Shown in pieces: positions 3,346-46,362 of a DNA stretch of 64,000 nt. The position numbers were made by a program, and so were the translations under genes. Where the stretch lies: contig JACQPY010000009.1 of NCBI GenBank assembly GCA_016207275.1, positions 27,637 through 91,636 on the forward strand, read 5' to 3'. The notes beneath the pieces were generated by a model. It had not been told where the DNA came from, did no database searches, and worked only from the letters and a program-made list of their open reading frames with translations. The stretch is from Candidatus Kerfeldbacteria bacterium (lineage in GTDB: Bacteria; Patescibacteriota; Patescibacteriia; SBBC01). How positions within the stretch are numbered: the first letter of the stretch is position 1; each line of letters opens with the position of its first letter.

Positions 3346-3420
3346 TGGCTCCGCGGGTCGGATTCGAACCGACAACCAACCGGTTAACAGCCGGTTGCTC
3401 TACCATTGAGCTACCGCGGA
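3346..3420 (-). tRNA. tRNA-Asn (GTT)
   Basis: Minus-strand cloverleaf: acceptor TCCGCGG/CCGCGGA, D-arm GCTCAATGGTAGAGC, anticodon loop CTGTTAA, T-arm GTCGGTTCGAATCCGAC, discriminator G and encoded CCA. Confidence 0.85.
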
Positions 3421-4818: not shown

Positions 4819-6660
4819 TTATGCCTCGAGGGCGTGGAGTTCATCGGTCAACTGGTTGAGCTGTTTCAGCAGGGCGTCGGCGTGAGCGGTGGCGTGCGCC
4901 GCTTCAGCCTGACGGAGCTCATGTTCAAGGCGTCGGAGTTCATTGACGACGCGCTCGCGCCGGAGCAATCGACTGCCATGGCCAATCTCTTGCCGAAGCC
5001 ATGCGAGGCGAGCGGCATCATCGCCAGCCGACGCTTCACTACTCGAAAAATCCTGCTCGGCCAAGAGCATAACCTTTGCCACGCGGTTCGTGAGCAGTGG
5101 CAGCTCTTTCGCAAGGTACTTGCGGAACCCTTCGTGGTCTAGTTGCTGGACCTCACTATAATACAAAAGGGCCTGTCTGTAAAGGGCCTGCAGCTCTGGA
5201 TCGGGCAGCATGGCCGTATCGATCAGCTCAGTCAGGTAGGAAAACAGCTCCGGCCGTGTGAACAAACCGAGGGCCAGGATCCGTTCGGCTACGACCGTGG
5301 CGCGGTCAGCAAGCGTCAGCGGCGACTCGCCAGTCGACGGTGGCGGTGTCGGTCGCTGCCCTGGCCGCCTTCGCCGGAGGGCATCACGGAGCGCCTGCTC
5401 GTCGACACCGAGGCGAGCGCTCAATTCCTTGAGGTAGTGACTCTGTTCCACCGGGTCGGTCAGACGAGCGACCACCGGTAGGAGCTGCTGCGCAATCCGC
5501 TTCTTCCCGTCGACGTCAGTCGGATCAGCCGCGGCAAAGGCGCGGTTAAACGAGTAATCGACGATTCGTTCGGCGGTGGCGATCGCGTTACGCCACCGGT
5601 TCGGGTCACGACGAATCAGCTCGTCCGGATCTTTGGCGTCCGGCAGCGTAATAATGGTCACGCGCAGGTCAGCGGCCAGGGCCTGGTCAATACCGCGACG
5701 GGCCGCTTCACCGCCGGCCAGGTCAGCATCGAAGGCCAGCGCCAGGTTGTTCGTGTAGCGCTTGAGCATCTTAACCTGAGAGTTGGTCAAAGCTGTTCCC
5801 GAGACCGCCACCACATTGGCAACGCCAGCCTGATGCGAGGTCAAACAATCGAGGTAGCCCTCAACCAAAATGGCCAGGTCGGCTTGCTTGATCGCGCGCT
5901 TGGCGCGGTCGAGACCAAAGAGGACTCGGCTCTTACTGTAGACTAGTGTCTCCGGCGTGTTGATGTACTTGGCCGTTGACCCGACGTCGCCCTCGACCGC
6001 TTCCACAATCCGGCCGCCGAAACCGACCACCGTCCCGTTGACGTCCCGAATCGGGAACATTAATCGGCCGCGGAAACGATCATAGGAACCAATTCCTCGC
6101 TCTCGCTTAACCGTCAGTCCGGCCTCGAATGCTTCTTGTTCGGTAAACCCTTTCTTCAGGACGAACGACAGTAACCCATCCCACGTCGTCGGGCTATACC
6201 CCAAGATAAAATTTTCCGCTGTTTCGTCACTGACCCCGCGCTGACGAAGGTAGGTGCGGGCCGTCTCGGCGGACGCAGCATCGGTTAAGACTTTCCGGTA
6301 GAAGGCGGCGGCTAAACGGACAAGGTCGAGCAGTCGCGTCTTGGCGTCGTGCAGCTGCGGATCGATCGGCCGCAGCTCAATGTTGGCTTTCTTAGCTAAG
6401 AGGCGAAGCGCTTCGGGAAAATCAACGTTCTCGATTTCCTGCACGAACGAGAACATATCGCCGCCTTTGCCGCAGCCGAAGCAATGCCAGGCCTGCCGGT
6501 CTTTCGAAACCATCAAGCTTGGTGTCTTCTCGTTATGGAACGGGCAGAGGACCTTGTAGCGATTGGTGCCGGCCGGCTTCAGCTGGACGTACTCACCAAG
6601 CACCTCGGCAATGTCGAGTCGTTCTTTGATTTCATCAACCGGTGAGAAAGAAATTACCAT
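4819..6660 (-). CDS. dnaG: DNA primase DnaG
   Basis: 613 aa. N-terminal CHC2 zinc finger [30 protein letters not shown], then TOPRIM region. Confidence 0.95.
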
Positions 6661-6717
6661 ACAACCCTATGAACAATAATAAACATCACGCACTGGCGAG
6701 ACCTTAAGCTTGCCGAA

Positions 6718-11798: not shown

Positions 11799-11964
11799 TT
11801 TTTGCCCAGAGCGGAAGGAGTGGGATTCGCCAGGTCATGCGACCTGGCGTCCGGTCGAACCCGTCCCGTCGGATCATACGATCCGATCGAATGATCGGAT
11901 GATGGGATGACCGGACGAACTCGCGAGACCCTTGCAGTATACTTTTTCTTTTGCCCAGAGCGGA
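11799..11964. repeat. 16-bp direct repeat TTTTGCCCAGAGCGGA (11799-11814 and 11949-11964) bracketing a palindrome-rich segment at the tRNA-Ser 3' end
   Basis: The second copy overlaps the 3' acceptor end of tRNA-Ser. Between the copies are nested hairpins CCAGGTC-ATGC-GACCTGG and GTCCGGTC...GACCGGAC with inner GGATC-ATAC-GATCC. Confidence 0.5.
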
Positions 11965-12047
11965 GGCGAGAGGATTCGAACCTCTGATACCTTTTCAGGT
12001 ATACGTCCTTTCCAGGGACGCCTATTCAACCACTCTAGCACGCCTCC
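11961..12047 (-). tRNA. tRNA-Ser (GGA)
   Basis: Type II tRNA: acceptor GGAGGCG/CGCCTCC, anticodon loop CTGGAAA, long variable arm TACCTGAAAAGGTA, T-arm AGAGGTTCGAATCCTCT. No encoded CCA. Confidence 0.85.
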
Positions 12048-12145
12048 GCTCTGGGCAGATGCATGATCAACCACCCCGCCATCGCATCCCAAAGCGCCCA
12101 GATTTTACATCCTCATGGTGACTCAGGCAAGCGACGAAACACATT

Positions 12146-21451: not shown

Positions 21452-21469
21452 TAGGTTTAAAGGTGATTT

Positions 21470-21496
21470 TTAGCACTCGATAAGGACGAGTGCTAA
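21470..21496 (-). promoter_or_regulatory. CIRCE operator (HrcA binding site)
   Basis: Perfect TTAGCACTC-N9-GAGTGCTAA upstream of groES. Confidence 0.85.
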
Positions 21497-21504
21497 CTAT
21501 CCAC

Positions 21505-21544: not shown

Positions 21545-22294
21545 TCAGGGCGCGGCCTTGCCGTTGACTTCGAGGTAGGTCAGCTCCAGGAGGTACGACG
21601 GCGCATTCCTCTCGCCGCTCGCCGGTGCTGTAGCAGCTACCCGCTGGTCGTCGAACGCCCCGGCGACCAGGTAGCCTTCCAGGCGCAGGTGGTTGCCTGG
21701 TCGTAACCGCTGCAGACGCTGCTGCACCGCGTCGTTGGTGGCCAAGACGCGCACGGCCCCGGCCGCAGTCGCGAAGACCGACGGATCAATTAAAGCATCG
21801 GCTGACGTCACGCGCGTCCCGCCGCTGACTGACGCGACGGTTAACGACTTCAAGCGGACGCTGGCGGCTGGTCCCCAAGCCACCACGACTGTCCGCGGGG
21901 CAAACGGTCCGAGGGGACCGGTCGTGGCGTGGCGACCAAGGGCCAGGGCATCAACGCTCCACAGTGCTTCCCGCGAAAAAAGCGCGGAAACGCCGCCGAC
22001 GTTCATTGACACTGACCCGGCGCCGAGAACCGCTGCCTGCTCGGGGTGATCGCTGACCACAAACTGCTGCTGCCATGGCAACATTCCAAACCAGTCACGG
22101 TACCAGGCGTAACCGACGCCGCCGAGGACAACGATGATCGTCAGTAGGCGAAGTGCGTTTCGCCGCCGGGCAATGCTTCGGATATCGTGGCCGGGTAAGG
22201 CCACTTCGCCGTGCAACAGAAAGCCGCACTGAAAACAACGATAACCAGTGGCTTCCGGCGTGTGATTTTCCGTGCCGCAGCGAGGGCACCTCAT
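21545..22294 (-). CDS. Hypothetical membrane protein with N-terminal zinc ribbon
   Basis: 249 aa. CPRCGTEN...CFQCG, then one TM helix and an extracytoplasmic domain. Confidence 0.55.
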   Translation of the reverse strand: MRCPRCGTENHTPEATGYRCFQCGFLLHGEVALPGHDIRSIARRRNALRLLTIIVVLGGVGYAWYRDWFGMLPWQQQFVVSDHPEQAAVLGAGSVSMNVGGVSALFSREALWSVDALALGRHATTGPLGPFAPRTVVVAWGPAASVRLKSLTVASVSGGTRVTSADALIDPSVFATAAGAVRVLATNDAVQQRLQRLRPGNHLRLEGYLVAGAFDDQRVAATAPASGERNAPSYLLELTYLEVNGKAAP

Positions 22295-22370
22295 CCCGTT
22301 AGAGAGCTAGCTGGTAAAGTATTCATCGGGTATTTCATTGGCAATGAATGAATAGCGGTCTCTCTAACGG
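22294..22370. mobile_element. MITE-like element A1 with terminal inverted repeats CCCGTTAGAGAG / CTCTCTAACGGG
   Basis: 77 bp: 12-14 bp perfect terminal inverted repeats around an AT-rich 51-nt core. Confidence 0.55.
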
Positions 22371-22375
22371 GATCA

Positions 22376-22451
22376 TCCCGTTAGAAAGTTAGCTTGATGA
22401 CTTTCACGCATACGAAAACCTATTCATGTTCAGCAGAAGACTTTCTAACGG
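22376..22451. mobile_element. MITE-like element A2 (tandem to A1), inverted repeats CCCGTTAGAAAG / CTTTCTAACGGG
   Basis: Same inverted repeats (one mismatch) but an unrelated AT-rich core. Separated from A1 by ATCAT. Together the two exactly fill the intergenic gap. Confidence 0.55.
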
Positions 22452-22453
22452 GA

Positions 22454-23431
22454 TCATGGTCGAATTTCAGCCAACCGCTGGTAGAAAGCCTGACGATAAG
22501 CCGCCCGTCGGTCGCGTTCATGAAACTTCAGCACCTCGTCGGTTACCACCACCTCGGTCGTACCGGCTGACCGGCGGCTCTCTTGTTTACCGCTCATCAC
22601 CAAAAGCTGCAAACGCTTAGCCAACCACTCGGTCAGTGCGCCGAGCGGCGTTGACAGTAGCGATTCCGGCACGGCGCGGACAAGCGGCGTGATCAGTCCA
22701 TTACCGAAGCGTGGGCTCGGCGTACCGATCAGGCCGTGCGGCAGACGATCGACCACCCAACGGTTGGCTCGTTTGAACGCTTCCCAGCGGCCGCCGCGAT
22801 CGAACAGTGGCACCACTTGAGCAGTCCAGTAGGTCAGGTACACGTCGTCGTCATCGCCGGCCAGCCGCAGCGAGTCAAGGTCGAGCGCGGCCTCACTGAC
22901 GTAGAAGCTCAAGCAGATGCGATCGGTTACGCGCAAACCGTGCCGACGGATTCCCAACAAACTGACGACCAGCGTCACCAGTAACCTCGTCAACCATAAC
23001 CGATTGCGGCCAGCGACAATGAACAAATCAATGTCGCTCTCCGGGCGGGCGTTGTCTAAGGCCAAGGTGTTTACCACCCCAATGAATTGGACGAACGGGA
23101 CCAATCGCAAGAACCGGGCCGCCAGCTCGGCGCGTCGCCACTTGCGTTCGTTAGCCGCATGTCGTTCCAGGCGCGTCGCCACAATCCTTGAGCGTCCGCG
23201 CCGGGTAATGAACTCGCCAGCTCGATCAACCACCGCCGCGCGCTCGAGCGCCTGGACTGCCCGCTCCACGTCAGCTGGCGTCGCCCTCGTGATTGACTCC
23301 CAGTCCCTCGAATCAGCCAGGTATAACCAGCGCCACAACTCTTCCACCCGGAGCGGGTAGTCAAAGACGTCGTGGTAGGCGAGGGCCGCAATAACCGCTT
23401 GTTCCAGTGGACTCAGTAAACGACTGGGCAT
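22454..23431 (-). CDS. Hypothetical protein with nucleotidyltransferase-fold core
   Basis: 325 aa. GVVNTLALDNARPESDIDLFIV resembles the minimal NTase G[SG]x9-13DxD motif. Confidence 0.5.
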   Translation of the reverse strand: MPSRLLSPLEQAVIAALAYHDVFDYPLRVEELWRWLYLADSRDWESITRATPADVERAVQALERAAVVDRAGEFITRRGRSRIVATRLERHAANERKWRRAELAARFLRLVPFVQFIGVVNTLALDNARPESDIDLFIVAGRNRLWLTRLLVTLVVSLLGIRRHGLRVTDRICLSFYVSEAALDLDSLRLAGDDDDVYLTYWTAQVVPLFDRGGRWEAFKRANRWVVDRLPHGLIGTPSPRFGNGLITPLVRAVPESLLSTPLGALTEWLAKRLQLLVMSGKQESRRSAGTTEVVVTDEVLKFHERDRRAAYRQAFYQRLAEIRP

Positions 23432-23474
23432 ACCTAATGGGCAGTGTACTCCAGGCGCGGCTGATCCTCCAGGC

Positions 23475-26400
23475 CTAGCGCACGGCTACCCGTTTCTTGG
23501 CGTTGCTCTTTTTGGTCAGGACTCTGACTGACGGCGGCACAACCGATTTGAGGTACTGACCAGTATACGAGCTGCCGACTCGAGCCACCGCCGTTGGCGT
23601 TCCGGTGGCCACGATATCCCCTCCTTTATCCCCGCCTTCCGGTCCGAGATCAATAATCCAGTCGGCGCACTTAATCACCTCGAGGTTGTGCTCAATGACC
23701 AGCACCGTATTTCCTTTGTCGACCAGCTGGTTGACGACGCCCAGCAGCCGCTTGACATCGTCAAAGTGCAGGCCGGTCGTCGGTTCATCGAGGATGTACA
23801 ACGTCCGACCAGTCGCCCGGCGCGACAACTCGGCGGCCAGCTTGACCCGTTGCGCTTCGCCGCCCGACAGGGTGGTCGCCGGTTGTCCGAGGTGGATGTA
23901 GCCCAGGCCAACGTCGAACAGGGTTTTCAGCTTCTGGTGAATGGCCGGAATGTGTTCGAAAAACTTCATCGCTTCTTCAACGGTCATGTCGAGGGCGTCG
24001 GCAATGCTCTTGCCTTTGTAGAGAATCTCCAGCGCCTGTGAATTATACCGCTGACCTTTGCACTCTTCGCACTCAACGTAGACGTCGGGGAGGAAGTGCA
24101 TTTCAATTCGGACTACGCCGTCGCCTTCGCAGGCTTCACAGCGGCCGCCTTTGACGTTAAACGAGAAGCGACCCGGTCCGTAGCCGCGGATGCGCGCTTC
24201 CGGTACCTGGGTGAACAGGTCACGAATGTAGGTGAAGACGCCAGTGTAGGTGGCTGGATTCGACCGCGGCGTTCGGCCGATCGGCGACTGATCAATGTCA
24301 ATGACCTTGTCGAGGTGCTGCAGCCCGACAATTTCCTTATGCTTAGCGGGCAGGTCCTTCGCCCCGTAGAAATGGGCGTTGAGCGCCTTAGCCAGGATTT
24401 CGGTCATCAAGGTTGACTTGCCAGAACCAGAGACGCCGGTAATGCAGACAAACTTGCCCAAGGGGAAAGCAACGTCGATGTTTTTGAGGTTGAAGGCGGA
24501 CGCGCCTTTGATGGTTAGGACCTTGCCGTTCCCCGGCCGGTACGATTTCGGCGGGTCAATCCGCAACTTGCCGGTCAGGTATCTGCCGGTCAGCGAATCC
24601 GCGTTCGCCATGATTGCTTTAGGGCCACCTTGGGCGACGACCTCGCCGCCGTGTTCGCCGGCACCGGGACCGATGTCAACAACTTCGTCGGCTTCGAGGA
24701 TGGTGTTTTCGTCATGCTCAACGACGATCACCGTGTTGCCCAGGTCGCGGAGCCGCTTGAGCGTGGCGATCAGCTTGTCGTTGTCCCGCTGGTGCAGGCC
24801 GATCGACGGTTCATCCAAGATATACAGGACGCCAACCAAGGACGAACCGATCTGTGTCGCCAGCCGAATGCGCTGGGCTTCGCCGCCGGCCAGCGTCGAA
24901 GCACTGCGGTCGAGGGTCAGATAGTCGAGTCCGACGTTGTGCAGGAACTGCAGGCGGCTGCGGATCTCCTTCAAAATTTGATGGCTGATTTTCTGATCAC
25001 GTTCCGACAACCGGACGCTCGGGTCTTTTGCCTTGGGGTTGCCGAGGTGGTCAAAGAACTCCATCGCCTGCTCGATGGTCAAAGCCGCGACCTCGGCAAT
25101 GTTCTGACCGCCGACGGTGACCGACAACGCTTCGGGCTTCAAGCGCTTACCGACACAGCGCTGGCAAGGGAAAACGCGCATGTACCGTTCGATTTCGGCC
25201 CGCATGTATTCCGACTCGGTCTCGCGGTAGCGCCGCATCAGGTTGGGAATCACCCCTTCGTAGGTCGTGTAGAACTCGCGGACTTTGCCCAGGCCGGACG
25301 AGTTGTTGACGTCGTACATGGCCTCACCCGTACCGTAGAACACCGTTTCGAGCGCCTTCTTCGGCAGCTTCTCGACCGGTTCGTCCAACGAGAATTTATG
25401 CTGGCGGGCGACAGCTTCGAGCACCCGGTAGTACCAGGTCTGACTCGAACTGGTCCGCGACCACGGGCGGATCGCGCCTTCGGCAATGGTCAGTCGCTTG
25501 TTCGGAATGACCAGATCTGAATCAACTTCCAGCCGCGTACCCAGGCCGGTACACTCAGGGCAAGCGCCGTGCGGTGAGTTGAAAGAAAAGGTCCGCGGTT
25601 CCAGGTCAGGTAGGTTCGTGCCGTCGTACGAGCAGGCAAAGTGCTCGCTGAACATCAACTGGTCGCCCGCCGGTACCAGTTCCGTGCCTTGCGACTTGAG
25701 CTTTTGAATGAAGACCAAGCCCTCGCCAAGCTTGAGGGCCGATTCAACTGAATCATAAAGTCTCGTTTTTTCCGAGTCCTGTTCTTTCTCCTCGGCGTCT
25801 TCGCCAATGGTCAAGCGGTCGACCACAACTTCAATTCTATGCTTCTTCTGTTTGTCGACTTTCAGGTCCTCGGCTTCGTCCACCGAGTAGATTACGTTGT
25901 CAAAACGAACGCGGACGTAGCCGGCCTTTCTCACTTCGGCGATTAAATTTTTGTGCTCGCCCTTCTGGTCGCGAACGACCGGCGCTAAAATCACGATCTT
26001 GGTGCCCGTCGGCAGCCGTCGAATGTTTTCGACAATCTGCTCGACCGTCTGCTTCGACACCACCCGGCCGCACTTCGGACAGTGGGGAATGCCGATTCGG
26101 GCGAACAGCAAGCGCAGATAATCGTAAATCTCCGTGACCGTGCCGACGGTTGAGCGCGGGTTGTGGGTGGTTGACTTCTGGTCAATTGAGATGGCTGGGC
26201 TGAGTCCCTCTATTTGGTCGACGTCCGGCTTGTCCATCAACCCCAAGAACTGCCGGGCGTAGGCGGACAGCGATTCGACGTAGCGACGTTGACCCTCGGC
26301 GTAGATGGTATCGAACGCCAAAGACGACTTGCCCGAACCGGACAAGCCCGTAAAAACGATGAGTTTATTTCGCGGCAGCTCCAGGCTGATGTTCTTCAGG

Positions 26401-26501
26401 TTGTGCACGCGGGCGCCGCGGATGACGATTTTGTCCGGCGAGTTTTGCTTTGTCAAAGCCATAAAAAGCGTGAAGCTGAAGCAGTATACACCCCTTGTCA
26501 A
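23475..26501 (-). CDS. uvrA: Excinuclease ABC subunit A
   Basis: 1008 aa. Two ABC ATPase modules ([24 protein letters not shown]) and zinc fingers. Confidence 0.95.
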
Positions 26502-26642
26502 GAAGGGTCAAGATACGCCTCCCATCTTCGAGGGGAGGGGAGGAAGTCCCGACGCGCTTCGCGGTCGGGACGACGGAGAGGGGTTATACTATCCCCCTGG
26601 ATCCAGCGCCTTTCACAAAAGGTGCTGGAGACGGGAGGGGGT

Positions 26643-26722
26643 CAACCCCGTTAGAGAGCCGCTTGAAAACACAATACTAAGGATTAAACACACGCTCAAT
26701 ACAAAGGACTCTCTAACGGGGT
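26643..26722. mobile_element. MITE-like element B with inverted repeats (TTGA)CCCCGTTAGAGAG / CTCTCTAACGGGG(TCAA)
   Basis: Same terminal inverted repeats as A1/A2, different AT-rich 54-nt core. Sits in a palindrome-rich region upstream of uvrA. Confidence 0.55.
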
Positions 26723-27627: not shown

Positions 27628-27846
27628 TTTCAAAGGGCACCTCCCTGTCGAGCACTTCATCCACGACGCCTGCTTCACCGTTTCGACGCTTGCGGTATAC
27701 TCTTGTTATTACTGTTCGTCAAGCACTGACGCGGGCTGCAACATATTCCCCTCCTAGCGTAGGCGGGGACGTCACGAAGTGACGGGGCAGGCACGAAAAC
27801 CAACACCAACAAAATCTACCGTTTTCCTCCGTGCTATACTTTTGCC

Positions 27847-33569: not shown

Positions 33570-33775
33570 GGGCGAGTGGTGAAATCCCGTACTATCCGCC
33601 TGCGGCGGAAGTACGGGACGGGCTGGCAGATTTACCCCGTACCAGAGGTGGGCGAGTGGCGGAACGGTAGACCCCGCACAACTCCTCACTTCGCTCGGAG
33701 TCTGCGGGGCAGGCGCACTTGGGAGAAAATGGTGGGCATGTGGCGGAACTGGCATACGCGTCCCGCCTAAGTGGT
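33570..33775 (+). repeat. Array of degenerate tRNA-Leu 5'-half-like segments and a CCCCGCA hairpin upstream of tRNA-Leu
   Basis: AGTGGCGGAACGGTAGAC (33655-) and ATGTGGCGGAACTGGCATACGCG (33738-) resemble the D-arm of the downstream tRNA (TGGTGGAACTGGCAGACACG). A CCCCGCA...TGCGGGG hairpin is at 33672-33709. Confidence 0.4.
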
Positions 33776-33862
33776 GCCGCGGTGGTGGAACTGGCAGACA
33801 CGCATGGTTCAGGGCCATGTTCCCGAAAGGGAGTGGGAGTTCAACTCTCCCCCGCGGCACCA
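33776..33862 (+). tRNA. tRNA-Leu (CAG)
   Basis: Type II: acceptor GCCGCGG/CCGCGGC, anticodon loop TTCAGGG, long variable arm, T-arm GGGAGTTCAACTCTCCC, discriminator A and encoded CCA. Confidence 0.85.
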
Positions 33863-34016
33863 CTTGTGCGGGATGACTGCAAGACCGTGAGGGTTTCCCG
33901 CCACCTTGATTCAAAAACTCAAATGATGGCGGGATCCCGTCCCCGCGTACGCGGGGAATGGCGGGACAACTCCCTCCTCGCCCACCAACCCCTCAAATAA
34001 TGCGACGGATTAAGAC

Positions 34017-34883: not shown

Positions 34884-34968
34884 GATCACCCTTCGAGAGC
34901 CTCAGGGTGACCCTGAGCAAGTCGAACGGGTCAGGGTGTCCGAAGGACGGGTCCCTAGCGGAGCCGCG
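34884..34968. repeat. 85-bp GC-rich palindromic repeat (CACCCTTCGAGAGCCTCAGGGTGACCCTGAGCAAGTCGAACGGGTCAGGGTG...)
   Basis: About 85% identical to 47497-47585. Contains the perfect palindrome CTCAGGGTGACCCTGAG. Intergenic between nudix and rnj. Confidence 0.6.
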
Positions 34969-36948: not shown

Positions 36949-37914
36949 ATGGAAGAACGTATCCTGTCCGGCATCCGCCCGTCCTCGCGCCTGCATATCG
37001 GCAACTACCTCGGCGCGATCAAGCAGTGGATTGAGCTCCAGCACCGCGCCCGCTGCTTTTTCATGATCGCCGACCTGCACGCTATTACCACGCCGTACGA
37101 GCCAGCGGAACTGCAACAGGCTATCCGCGACGTCGCCCTCGACTACCTGGCGGCCGGGCTTGACCATCATAAAGTAACACTCTTCGTCCAATCACACGTG
37201 CCTGAGCACGTTGAATTGGCCTGGCTGTTTTCTACGCTCGTGCCGGTTGGCGAACTCCACCGGATGACCCAGTTCAAAGAGAAAAGCACGAAGGCTTCGC
37301 TCGCGAACCTCGGCCTACTCGCCTACCCCGTACTCATGGCCGCAGACATTTTGATTTACCAAGCTCACGAAGTACCGGTTGGTGAAGACCAAACGCAGCA
37401 CGTTGAATTAGCACGCGTGATCGCCCGCAAGTTCAATGCTAAATACGGCCAGGTTTTTCCTGAGCCGAAAACAATCTTATCTGGCGGCAAACGCATCATG
37501 TCATTGTCCGACCCAAGTAAGAAAATGTCGAAGACCGATGGCGGCGGCATCCAGCTCGATGATTCCCCTGAGGTCATCAAGAAAAAAGTCATGAAAGCCG
37601 TCACCGCCACCAAAGGTGGGGAAGGCAACGCTGGCGTCATGAACCTATTCACCTTACTCAAAGAATTCAGCGATCCAACGACCTACCGGCAGTTCCTGAA
37701 CGCCGAAGAAACCGGCACCATCAAGTACGCCGAGCTCAAAGCGCAGCTGGCCGACGACATTGCTCGACACTTTGCCGCCTTCCGAGAAAAACGCAAAGCG
37801 TTGGCCGGCAACCACCGCTACCTCGAGGAAATTTTGAGTGCCGGCGCTGAGGAAGCCCGGGCCACGGCCAAAAAAACGCTCGACCAGGCAAAGCAGCTGA
37901 TGGGATTGGCATGA
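36949..37914 (+). CDS. trpS: Tryptophanyl-tRNA synthetase
   Basis: 321 aa with HIGN (HIGH) and KMSKT (KMSKS) class I motifs. Confidence 0.95.
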   Translation: MEERILSGIRPSSRLHIGNYLGAIKQWIELQHRARCFFMIADLHAITTPYEPAELQQAIRDVALDYLAAGLDHHKVTLFVQSHVPEHVELAWLFSTLVPVGELHRMTQFKEKSTKASLANLGLLAYPVLMAADILIYQAHEVPVGEDQTQHVELARVIARKFNAKYGQVFPEPKTILSGGKRIMSLSDPSKKMSKTDGGGIQLDDSPEVIKKKVMKAVTATKGGEGNAGVMNLFTLLKEFSDPTTYRQFLNAEETGTIKYAELKAQLADDIARHFAAFREKRKALAGNHRYLEEILSAGAEEARATAKKTLDQAKQLMGLA

Positions 37915-38588
37915 GAAAATCTATCCCGCTCATCCTCGCGCTCGTCATCCTCATGACTGTCACCCTGAGGCTCTCGAAGGGTGACGTTGCTTTCGCCGCC
38001 GCAAAATCGTTTGACATCGTCGCCACTTCATCCTCTTTTTCGCCATCATCCATTACCGTCGATCCAGGGGATGTCGTTACCCTCAACTTTTCCGTCCCGT
38101 CCACTGACAGTTACTGCTGCGGCCTCGACGTCCGCTCGTCAGCTTTCAGCACCGTCACCATTGCCAAGGGTGGCAGCGGCAACGCCACCTTCACTGCGTC
38201 GTCATCGTTCACTTTTTCCTCGTACTGGCCGGCCAGCTCAATCCACAAAGCTGATGGCACCGTCACGGTTCAAACTGCCGCCGTCCAACCACCAACCAAT
38301 ACGAATACGACTATCGTCAAGCCGACCATCAGCAAGGTCCAACCAGGAAAGTTCAAACAAAAAACCGAAGGCTCGTTTTCCATCATCATTACCGGCACCG
38401 AGTTCAAAACTGGAGCCGCAGTCAAAGTCGGTAAAGTCAAAGCCTCGAAAGTATCGCGCCTGTCCAGCACGAAACTCAAGGCCATCATTCCGCGAAAAAA
38501 CCTGGCCGCGGGCAAGTACGACGTTACCGTCACGAACAAAGACGGCGGGAAAACCACCAAGAAACGCGCCGTAACTATTGTGAAGTAG
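37911..38588 (+). CDS. Hypothetical secreted protein with C-terminal IPT/TIG-like Ig domain. A repeat element sits in-frame after the signal peptide
   Basis: Signal peptide MRKSIPLILALVILM. Next comes TVTLRLSKGDVA, encoded by the palindromic repeat GTCACCCTGAGGCTCTCGAAGGGTGAC (37959-37985). Confidence 0.6.
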   Translation: MRKSIPLILALVILMTVTLRLSKGDVAFAAAKSFDIVATSSSFSPSSITVDPGDVVTLNFSVPSTDSYCCGLDVRSSAFSTVTIAKGGSGNATFTASSSFTFSSYWPASSIHKADGTVTVQTAAVQPPTNTNTTIVKPTISKVQPGKFKQKTEGSFSIIITGTEFKTGAAVKVGKVKASKVSRLSSTKLKAIIPRKNLAAGKYDVTVTNKDGGKTTKKRAVTIVK

Positions 38589-40529: not shown

Positions 40530-40722
40530 ACAAATCGACTATACCAAATAAAGCAAAAACGACAAAAGAAGGTTCTCGACTCCCCCGAATCAAGTTCTCG
40601 ACGCGGCCGCCGGTGGCGACCTTGCTCGAACGGGAACTATTTTTGTGTTGCTCTTCGAGCGACTCCCGCGGAAGCGGGAGGAGTCGAGAAGCCTCAGTTG
40701 CTAAAGTTTTCAACCCAGGACG

Positions 40723-43209: not shown

Positions 43210-44460
43210 ATGCCAACCCTCAATCAGTCCGATCCCGAACTGGCCGCCGGGCTGCAGCGCGAACTCGAACGGCAGCGGTCCGGCTTGGAAATGATCGCTT
43301 CGGAAAACTTTGTCTCGCCAGCCGTGCTCGCCGCCCTCGGCAGCGTGGCCACCAACAAGTACTCCGAAGGGTACCCCGGCAACCGCTACTACGGCGGCAA
43401 CCAATTTATTGATCAAGTGGAAAGCCTCGCCGTCAGCCGCGCCCAGCAACTATTCGGGGCGGAACACGTCAACGTCCAGCCGCTGTCCGGCGCGCCGGCC
43501 AACATTGCGGTCTACTCGGCCCTGCTGCAACCCGGCGACACGGTTTTAGGCATGGACTTGGGCCACGGCGGGCACTTGACGCACGGTCATCCGGTCACCT
43601 GGATGGCCAAGCTGTTCAACTTCGTCCGCTACAAGACCGATCCGGCCACCGGACTCATTGACTACGATCAGGTTCGAGAACTAGCCAAGGCCCATCAACC
43701 AAAACTGATTCTCGTTGGCTACTCCGCCTACTCTCGCGAGATCGACTACGATAAGTTCAAAACGATTGCCGACGAAGTTGGCGCGCTGACCATGGCTGAT
43801 GTTGCCCATATCGCCGGATTGATTGCCGCCAAATTGATGAACAACCCCGTCCCGCTGTTTGACGTGGTCACGACCACCACCCATAAAACGCTCCGCGGGC
43901 CGCGGGGCGGGATGATTCTCTGCCGCGAGCAGCACGCCAAAGCCATTGACAAGGCCGTCTTCCCGGGATTCCAGGGCGGTCCGCACGAAAACAACATCGC
44001 TGCAAAAGCGGTGGCCTTCAAGGAAGCCTTAGAACCGTCCTTCAAGGAGTACGCCCAGCAAATCATGAAAAACGCCAAAGCGCTCGAACACGCTTTTCGA
44101 GCGGGCGGCCTGACCATCTGCTTCCAGCAAACGGACAACCATCTGCTCCTGCTCGATGTGACCTCAGTTGGCTTGTCCGGCAAACAGGCGCAAGACCTTC
44201 TCGACTCGGTCGGCATCACCGTCAATAAAAACATGATTCCCGACGATCAACGAAAACCAATGGACCCATCGGGTATCCGGATCGGCACGCCCGCACTAAC
44301 CACCAGAGGATTTACCGAAGCTGACATGACCCGGATCGGCGAAATGATTGTCAAGGTGCTGCGCTCGCCGAACGACGAGTCAGTCCAACAGCAAGCCCGC
44401 CAGCTGGTTCGAGAACTGACTGCTGCCCATCCGCTGTATCCAGGCTTAGCTTATCGCTGA
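43210..44460 (+). CDS. glyA: Serine hydroxymethyltransferase
   Basis: 416 aa: [24 protein letters not shown] (PLP lysine region). Confidence 0.95.
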
Positions 44461-44478
44461 TAGCTTGTAGCTTTTAGA
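44455..44478. repeat. Left inverted repeat flanking the four-helix-bundle gene
   Basis: CGCTGATAGCTTGTAGCTTTTAGA is the reverse complement of the right arm at 44836-44861. It starts at the glyA stop codon. Confidence 0.6.
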
Positions 44479-44484
44479 GGAAAG

Positions 44485-44847
44485 ATGTACGTAGAATCGT
44501 TCAAACAGCTCACTGTTTGGCAACGAGCCATTGAGGTTATTAAAGAAATTTATCAAGTCACCGCTCGTCTACCCGTAGCCGAACAATACGGATTGATTGG
44601 ACAGATGCGACGTGCGGCGGTTTCTATTCCAGCCAACATCGCCGAAGGTAAAAAGCGTAAAACCAAACGAGACTTCCGCTCGTTCTTGCGAACGGCTGAT
44701 GGTTCGGCTGCTGAGCTCGAAACGCTGATCATTGTTGCTGGTCAAGTTTACCCGACCATCGACTTTTCTCGATGTTCTTCGCCCCTGACTGAGGTTCAAA
44801 AAATGCTAACAGCTATGATACAAAAACTTGAAGCTTCTAAAAGCTAA
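44485..44847 (+). CDS. Four-helix-bundle protein (23S rRNA intervening-sequence / Avd-like family)
   Basis: 120 aa: LTVWQRAIEV...IPANIAEGKKRKTKRDFRSFLRTADGSAAELETL, hallmark of the PF05635-type family. Confidence 0.8.
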   Translation: MYVESFKQLTVWQRAIEVIKEIYQVTARLPVAEQYGLIGQMRRAAVSIPANIAEGKKRKTKRDFRSFLRTADGSAAELETLIIVAGQVYPTIDFSRCSSPLTEVQKMLTAMIQKLEASKS

Positions 44848-44861
44848 CAGCTACAAGCTAT
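44836..44861. repeat. Right inverted repeat flanking the four-helix-bundle gene (TCTAAAAGCTAACAGCTACAAGCTAT)
   Basis: Inverted copy of 44455-44478 and member of the family also at 14071 and 46325. It ends 8 nt before the folD start. Confidence 0.6.
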
Positions 44862-44869
44862 AAACTCTC

Positions 44870-46248: not shown

Positions 46249-46277
46249 GCCTCCACATCGGAATCGTCGGCCTTTAT

Positions 46278-46354
46278 GAGCTTTGAGCTTTTGGCTTATA
46301 GCTGTTAGACGCCTCGTCACGATCCTAAAAGCTAACAGCTATAAGCTACAAGCT
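46278..46354. repeat. Stand-alone hairpin built from two inverted copies of the AAAAGCTAACAGCTATAAGC repeat
   Basis: Perfect 15-bp stem GCTTATAGCTGTTAG / CTAACAGCTATAAGC with a 22-nt loop, intergenic between nudix and ychF. Confidence 0.6.
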
Positions 46355-46362
46355 GAACCTCT

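Follow-up and report, generated by a model that had tools for sequence, protein, structure and literature searches.

Short units with fixed inverted ends in a Candidatus Kerfeldbacteria contig: probable members of a widely dispersed family of miniature transposons

Three units with common inverted ends near uvrA and groESL

The contig JACQPY010000009.1 of a Candidatus Kerfeldbacteria bacterium (GenBank assembly GCA_016207275.1) contains three short units, here named E1, E2, and E3, that share the same inverted terminal sequences. They lie in a stretch of 64,000 nucleotides that we analyzed as a whole and refer to as the window (positions 27,637 to 91,636 of the forward strand). The evidence assembled below makes it probable that they are copies of a family of miniature noncoding DNA transposons (miniature inverted-repeat transposable elements, MITEs). 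The genes near the units are all encoded on the minus strand, in the order uvrA, an open reading frame (ORF) of 325 amino acids (aa), E2, E1, a 249-aa ORF, an operator resembling CIRCE (controlling inverted repeat of chaperone expression), groES, and groEL. Labels such as L001 and L085 denote genome stretches (loci) that carry the element or were compared for it.

22294..22372, unit E1: left end T-CCCGTTAGAGAG at 22294-22306, core at 22307-22359, right end CTCTCTAACGGG-A at 22360-22372
22376..22453, unit E2: left end T-CCCGTTAGAAAG at 22376-22388, core at 22389-22440, right end CTTTCTAACGGG-A at 22441-22453
26646..26721, unit E3: left end C-CCCGTTAGAGAG at 26646-26658, core at 26659-26708, right end CTCTCTAACGGG-G at 26709-26721
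22291..22293, first TCA copy (TGA on the gene strand), left of E1, overlapping the ATG (22292-22294) of the 249-aa ORF
22373..22375, second TCA copy, common to E1 and E2
22454..22456, third TCA copy, adjoining E2 on the right and serving, as TGA on the minus strand, as stop of the 325-aa ORF
26642..26645, TCAA, left copy of the E3 duplication (TTGA on the uvrA strand); TTGA likewise flanks the units at the E3 site in L085 and L299
26722..26725, TCAA, right copy of the E3 duplication
21545..22294, minus strand, 249-aa Zn-ribbon/membrane ORF, downstream of E1, its ATG abutting the end of E1
22454..23431, minus strand, 325-aa ORF with no assigned function, upstream of E2 and E1, its stop in the duplicated triplet; homologs in L001, L085, L298, L299, and L300
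23475-26501, minus strand, uvrA, with the real ATG at 26462
26483..26511, minus strand, TTGACC-17-TATACT, a promoter-like site of sigma-70 type for uvrA; it lies outside the unit, downstream of E3 in the direction of transcription

The terminal inverted repeat of the three units is 13 bp long, Y-CCCGTTAGARAG ... CTYTCTAACGGG-R (in short form Y-CCCGTTAGA ... TCTAACGGG-R), and consists of 12 perfectly matched base pairs and a complementary outer Y:R pair. The half-sites CCCGTTAGAGAG and CCCGTTAGAAAG are found in the window at 22295, 22360 (minus strand), 22377, 22441 (minus strand), 26647, and 26709 (minus strand), where they form three inverted pairs, and all six read CCCGTTAGA(G/A)AG. Shuffled sequences gave an expectation of 0.25 matches and in no case reached six, confirming the three units with shared inverted termini that an original prediction had described; the units are thus real, but its coordinates were one base off for the first two and included flanking bases for the third. 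The cores of E1, E2, and E3 (53, 52, and 50 nt) have a GC content of 40%, 38%, and 38%, respectively, compared with 57% for the window; they are AT-rich as predicted, with these measured values taking the place of the initial estimate of ∼35% in 60%. In local alignments assessed against shuffles no two of the three cores are significantly alike in either orientation (P = 0.07-0.9), so that the claim of unrelated cores holds for the copies in the window; for the family it does not, as the core types have relatives elsewhere.

E1 and E2 stand in tandem and together occupy the entire gap between the stop of the 325-aa ORF (TGA, 22454-22456) and the ATG of the 249-aa ORF (22292-22294), exactly as had been predicted. 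Both are flanked by a 3-bp direct repeat, TCA, and E3 by a 4-bp direct repeat, TCAA; these short flanking repeats were absent from the original prediction, as was the abrupt end of complementarity past repeat position 12 described below. E3 lies upstream of the promoter-like site of uvrA, which is conserved in L085, L298, L299, and L301. The coding capacity of the units (74-79 bp) is limited to ORFs of 13 and 17 codons that start in a linker and stop in a core. A micro-ORF or leader peptide was considered and rejected, given that these ORFs, opened by the ATGAT linkers and beginning with MIPLE, show no conservation beyond the residues encoded by the repeat. A role as promoter cassette was likewise rejected: a sigma-70 scan detected no promoter inside the units, and the promoters of uvrA and groES lie outside them.

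Distribution, cores, and insertion sites of the family

To assess how far the end pair extends, the pattern CCCGTTAGARAG-N40-70-CTYTCTAACGGG was scanned across 185,579 species-representative genomes (596 Gb). At least 118 genome stretches of uncultured bacteria carry the exact end pair at a spacing of 40-70 nt, compared with a calculated ∼0.3 expected by chance in 596 Gb; the inverted-repeat pair is therefore not confined to the window. Among the matches listed, the hosts are Patescibacteria (54 loci), Planctomycetota (27), Desulfobacterota/Deltaproteobacteria (12), metagenome-assembled genomes (MAGs) of Pseudomonadota (9), Omnitrophota (5), Nitrospirota (4), Nitrospinota (1), and Elusimicrobia (1), with the ends of the element identical across at least eight phyla. 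Several of the matches lie on contigs of 130-880 kb. Exact copies recur within single MAGs: at least seven in the Kerfeldbacteria genome JACQKH01, at least five in MFKK01, at least four each in JAZDFP01 and JBFMDM01, and three in the 64-kb window. Copies sharing the same core are found 2-5 times per genome in L002/L010, L005/L013/L063, and L039. No relevant published description emerged from literature searches on the end sequences or on MITEs of the candidate phyla radiation (CPR).

Type IV pilus clusters of four unrelated genomes (Jorgensenbacteria, Omnitrophota, Saccharibacteria, and Terrybacteria) also hold copies. These directly adjoin pilC in L002, L010, L039, and L074 and lie upstream of pilB in L046, some of them in tandem with identical cores.

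From the matches listed we extracted 125 copies, 123 of which entered the flank statistics, and a looser set anchored on a 7-mer comprised 153 copies. The outermost terminal pair is C:G in 83 copies and T:A in 29, and is complementary in 113 of 123. Within the looser set, repeat positions 1-9 are invariant, and positions 10-12 are variable yet 94-97% complementary; complementarity over positions 1-12 amounts to 94-100% and falls to 17% at position 13. Most copies are of similar size (75-79 bp in 95 of 153), with a second group at ∼90 bp and rare copies ranging from ∼30 to ∼160 bp.

The cores fall into several types. E1-type cores are present in the window, L298, L085, L057, and L001, with orthologs or paralogs of E1 that are 68-81% identical (L298, L085, and L057), and E3-type cores in the window, L085, L073, L016, L004, and L078; a core type of the Planctomycetota forms a further subfamily, and a ∼90-nt type is common to Planctomycetota, Omnitrophota, Thermodesulfovibrionia, and Brocadiaceae. 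This ∼90-nt type is predicted to form two inner hairpins; of its 25 predicted pairs, 14 constitute the invariant outer stem and 6 are kept by changes on both sides. Irrespective of host GC content the cores stay at ∼40% GC, and in hosts above 50% GC they average 42% compared with 55% for the host. Folding of the units, which had been proposed together with the original prediction, yields stable predicted hairpins (ΔG −30 to −37 kcal/mol, z −5 to −7); the predicted RNA fold of E1 has a 14-bp closing stem (ΔG −31 kcal/mol, z −5.7). Covariance models of Rfam 15 gave no match reaching the gathering score at the window units or at eight loci of the ∼90-nt subfamily, the best subthreshold hit being a chance match to a microRNA model (E = 0.96).

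The flanks of the copies carry a target-site duplication. Flank positions 2-5 match on both sides in 93-101 of the 123 copies per position, compared with 35-80 in permutations, and positions beyond these are near background. A perfect 4-bp TNNA duplication is present in 79 of the 123 copies, and nearly all of these duplications are TTTA/TAAA, TGAA/TTCA, or TTGA/TCAA, with TTAA and TATA in none of the 79. Units with a T..A terminal pair, E1 and E2 included, have a 3-bp TCA/TGA duplication in place of the 4-bp one. The insertions are also unevenly placed with respect to genes: a long open frame spans 26% of the copies compared with 78% of random positions in the same loci, and the flanking hexamer includes the start or stop of an ORF with 80 or more codons in 30% of the copies compared with 7% of random positions. 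In L298 and L299, the duplicated TTGA makes up the first four bases of TTGACC, the −35 hexamer of the promoter-like site of uvrA.

Nested copies and orthologous sites record individual insertion events. In L085, a second unit lies within the right end of an E1-type unit, which it splits as CTCT[CTAA]...[CTAA]CGGG with CTAA duplicated; further nested insertions, each with its own duplication, are found in L104, L099, and L029, and a nested or tandem insertion likewise in L242/L253. The junction between the 325-aa and 249-aa ORFs was compared across relatives, where the loci of four homologs of the 249-aa protein were all occupied and an empty site was found through relatives of UvrA. This junction holds two units in the window, one unit each in L001 and L296, and one with a nested unit in L085. 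In L298 it carries the E1 ortholog alone, without E2 (core 44/54 identical, shuffle maximum 37), and in L295 an E1-type unit with decayed ends. The junction of L300 is empty, with a 30-nt spacer followed by ATGATCTGCCCACGCTGT, the start of the matching Zn-ribbon gene; as this empty site reads ...CCCAATGATCTGCCC, the target was TGA within A-TGA-T, in the region of the start codon. E2 inserted later, into the TGA that the insertion of E1 had duplicated.

Two of these relatives show how the element interferes with gene calls. The 325-aa-type gene called in L296 ends at a TAG within the repeat CCCGTTAG (1896-1907), and that of L298, as called, reads into the element (6620-6670); several genes called in related contigs run into the element or stop at its TAG, which means that the element either alters C-termini or misleads gene callers. 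L298 also has an extra copy of GATCCCGT (GGGGATCCCGTGATCCCGTTAGAGAG) just upstream of the E1 ortholog (6620-6635), which could be the remnant of a lost E2-like unit.

The E3 site shows a comparable range of states. L085 has an ortholog at 2294-2369 (core 46/52 identical), and L299 a unit at the same TTGA, the core of which matches E3 only when flipped and then marginally (34/55). The unit in L298 has an end variant, CCCGTTAGAAGT/ACTTCTAACGGG, and L300 retains only a relic. The neighboring genes of the decayed copies in L295 and L300 are intact. Between E3 and the promoter-like site of uvrA lies a hairpin-rich segment of ∼115 nt (26515-26635) with a TTGACCC direct repeat on either side. The window and L085 have this segment; in L298 and L299 it is absent, and the E3-type unit directly abuts the promoter. 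It is likely to be a small insertion in its own right, from a different family.

Origin of the units and candidate enzymes

The duplications, the nested insertions, and the empty and filled orthologous sites support the MITE-like nature put forward in the original prediction, and together with the ends and the distribution they can be read directly from the genomes; for the nature of the enzyme, horizontal spread, and the tolerance of insertions we infer the following scheme. Both ends of a unit would be bound by a transposase acting in trans, most probably a cut-and-paste enzyme of the DDE type, which would cut the target with a stagger of 4 nt at T-N-N-A, or of 3 nt at T-N-A for units with T..A termini such as E1 and E2, and repair of the gaps would duplicate the staggered target bases. 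Mobilization would need the ends only. These would stay fixed since only copies with intact ends can be mobilized, and cores would drift or be replaced, which would result in fixed ends around unrelated cores. The surviving copies would be those in noncoding spots, often at start or stop codons or at the −35 box of a promoter (at the E3 site, the TTGA of TTGACC). In RNA or single-stranded DNA, a long hairpin would join both flanks within the transcript, and this is a plausible reason for the tolerance of insertions that separate a stop codon from the start codon following it. The distribution fits an old and widely dispersed family, which may have been transferred repeatedly among co-occurring groundwater and sediment bacteria over a long history.

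Several points weigh against this interpretation. Neither an autonomous copy nor a cognate transposase with these ends, the latter also proposed as a target of search with the original prediction, was found in the window, the 118 loci, ∼870 kb around copies, 80 IS1380 loci, or viral contigs. Identity of 12-13 bp of the ends across at least eight phyla is unusual for insertion-sequence families, and it should be noted that the copies were fetched by an exact end pattern, so that the conservation of the ends is partly by construction. Most copies measure 75-79 bp despite their unrelated cores, for which internal deletion of a parent element is no obvious explanation. The hosts are all MAGs, and some taxonomic labels may thus be wrong.

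The stability of the hairpins raises the question whether the units are instead structured RNAs or DNA hairpins with a function for the host, such as messenger RNA stabilizers, insulators, processing sites, or small RNAs, with the stem kept for the need of the host and mobility secondary or absent. This would agree with the strong predicted folds, with the complementary variation of inner stem positions, and with the two inner hairpins and six compensatory pairs that the ∼90-nt subfamily keeps across phyla; the 325-aa/249-aa junction is moreover occupied in most relatives examined, and the conserved stretch shared by E3 and L085 (46/52) stands out above the surrounding spacer. We nevertheless regard a host function as distinctly unlikely, as duplications, nested copies, and empty sites represent insertion events, and covariation of the stem would equally be expected of transposon ends that fit one protein. 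The cores appear unconstrained and occur in either orientation (the E3-type core appears flipped in L299), no Rfam match was found at the sites searched, and the decayed copies beside intact genes in L295 and L300 argue against an essential role. With cores that are neither conserved nor fixed in orientation, copies that can decay, and no recombinase nearby, the suggestion of a cassette-like or small-RNA-encoding element in the original prediction finds no support.

A site-specific recombination system, of which the units would be the excised or integrated form, comes to mind for the tandem junction CTCTCTAACGGG-ATCAT-CCCGTTAGAAAG, where two abutted ends resemble a two-arm recombination site and might act as the core site of a recombinase, as in integron cassettes, Xer-dependent modules, or invertible promoters. 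The duplicated bases, of which the outer ones are palindromic (T..A or C..G) and the middle ones free, and the apparently flipped, marginally matching core at the E3 site of L299, could be read in the same way. However, no integrase or recombinase was found in the window and none recurs near copies, the targets vary widely whereas site-specific systems reuse one site, and a 4-bp duplication that varies in sequence is characteristic of staggered cuts by a transposase. The empty site of L300 contains no arm-like sequence at all. In the attC sites of integrons the order is R'' (RYYYAAC) ... R' (GTTRRRY), whereas it is reversed here (GTTAGAG ... CTCTAAC), and the abutted ends (∼29 bp) are too short for an attC; integron cassettes further carry ORFs and have an adjacent integrase and attI, in contrast to the 50-53-nt cores without ORFs and the lack of an integrase in the window. 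Cores of ∼52 bp are also too short for inversion by a recombinase as in fim-type or Bacteroides switches. Taken together, a recombination system appears very unlikely. Even less credible is an origin as REP/REPIN-type elements spread by a RAYT, an IS200/IS605-like tyrosine transposase. In outline the units do look like REP doublets or bacterial interspersed mosaic elements: they are short, intergenic, multicopy hairpins with conserved arms and a more variable spacer. REPINs, however, are lineage-specific, have palindromic arms containing a GTAG motif, and are tied to a RAYT gene encoded by the genome that carries them, whereas the arms here are not palindromic and lack the GTAG-plus-hairpin organization, screens of the window detected no RAYT-like ORF, and the family spans phyla. 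The target-site duplications alone already contradict such an origin, since single-strand HUH/Y1 transposition produces none.

Pfam screens of the window detected no transposase, integrase, or recombinase, and none was found in the ∼870 kb around copies by all-against-all clustering of ORFs, tblastn with ISEcp1, or an IS1380 hidden Markov model (HMM; PF13701-type), which gave no hit among 4704 ORFs near copies (best E = 0.27). ORFs of at least 200 aa from the 118 loci clustered into housekeeping families only, with pilB, pilC, and pilin genes as recurrent neighbors, and a transposase beside the copies was therefore rejected, as was a weak match in L013 from local IS1380 searches, which proved spurious. 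Viral contigs contained no paired ends, and a scan for single ends returned chance matches and one tandem pair.

The closest resemblance of the ends is to piggyBac, a transposon with the end CCCTAGAAAGATA, a TTAA duplication, and hairpins at the transposon ends (PMC5861402), for which the prokaryotic group IS1380 serves as outgroup (PMC10813416). Both piggyBac and the units have a 13-bp repeat with a CCC start and TAGAAAG (CCCTAGAAAGATA/CCCTAGAAAG in piggyBac compared with (C)CCCGTTAGAAAG here), and in both the duplication is 4 bp long with T first and A last. Unlike piggyBac, which is strict for TTAA, none of the 79 perfect duplications here is TTAA; the repeat moreover has two extra bases (GT), the hosts are bacteria, and no piggyBac-type transposase was found in the searches above. 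The IS1380 reference ends were read from plasmid records of ISEcp1 (CCTAGATTC, in longer form CCTAGATTCTACGT), IS1678 (CCTGAATAATTC), and IS1247 (CCCGCATTCCCCAAGT for IS1247-like elements), and ends with a CC(C) start (CCTAGATTC, CCTGAATAATTC, and CCCGCATTCC) were compared with the Y-CCCG of the units. In common are the CC or CCCG start and the shortness of the target duplication; beyond this start the repeats diverge, and IS1678 and IS1247-like elements duplicate 5 bp without a T..A rule, compared with 4 bp (or 3 bp) here. A protein search with ISEcp1 returned only relatives of at least 83% identity, the loci recovered from metagenomes with an IS1380 alignment were all IS1247-like and had different ends, and CCCGTTAGA is present in none of 80 metagenomic IS1380 loci. 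With only the CC/CCCG start in common, a 5-bp duplication, and no IS1380 end carrying CCCGTTAGA, the link to IS1380 and piggyBac is a lead rather than a classification. On this lead one may speculate, at what we consider low odds, that the mobilizing enzyme is an undescribed bacterial transposase that stands nearer to eukaryotic piggyBac than known IS1380 elements do and would recognize the 13-bp CCC...TAGAAAG end, make 4-nt staggered cuts at T-N-N-A, possibly through hairpin intermediates, and circulate in Patescibacteria, Planctomycetota, and other subsurface phyla; in a variant of this idea, the enzyme would have been lost or domesticated and the hairpins kept because hosts use them at gene junctions.

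Other features of the window and significance of the family

The CIRCE-like inverted repeat upstream of groES, TTAGCACTCG-N7-CGAGTGCTAA, lies at 21465-21501, and a strong promoter-like site (21532-21505) lies beside it. A reverse-transcriptase ORF (PF00078; 112-1110, minus strand) and the bAvd-type ORF adjoining it (1111-1494) look like a diversity-generating retroelement module located at the window edge; these Pfam assignments were transferred from L297, a Logan contig that encodes an identical protein. The arms of a perfect 26-nt inverted repeat, TCACCCTTCGAGAGCCTCAGGGTGAC, are separated by 3 kb (34886-34911 and 37959-37984), one being intergenic and the other within the signal-peptide region of the ORF at 37911-38588. 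This repeat was rejected as a possible insertion sequence, as it brackets RNase J and an aminoacyl-tRNA synthetase gene. A 120-aa ORF (44485-44847), which may be a "23S rRNA intervening-sequence protein" of the small four-helix-bundle type, is flanked by AGCT-rich inverted repeats, and these repeats occur again downstream of the genes that follow (44448-44866 and 46270-46357). The window further contains a transfer RNA gene (3349-3420, minus strand) and short hairpin-like inverted repeats at 33761-33873, 11952-12057, and 40563-40700.

The units have counterparts among known bacterial MITEs. Correia elements of Neisseria, RUP elements of Streptococcus, and ERIC sequences are each restricted to one genus or family and have shared cores, a length of 100-150 bp, repeats of 20-30 bp, and a TA duplication. 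Like these, the units described here are short, noncoding, multicopy, and intergenic, are bounded by terminal inverted repeats, and are flanked by a short duplication of the target; they often lie at gene boundaries or inside operons, form hairpins in transcripts, and would be mobilized in trans. They differ in their length of ∼77 bp, their 13-bp repeats, their presence in at least eight phyla, their many unrelated core types, and their TNNA/TNA duplication.

The genomes of Patescibacteria (CPR) are very small and are regarded as poor in mobile DNA. In core genes, namely uvrA and a gene next to groESL, a tiny transposon has here repeatedly inserted at start codons, at stop codons, and at a −35 promoter box; such units break assemblies and mislead gene callers. 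The family points to a widespread transposase, and the occurrence of the same 13-bp ends in at least eight phyla of shared subsurface habitats may provide a marker of DNA exchange between poorly known lineages.

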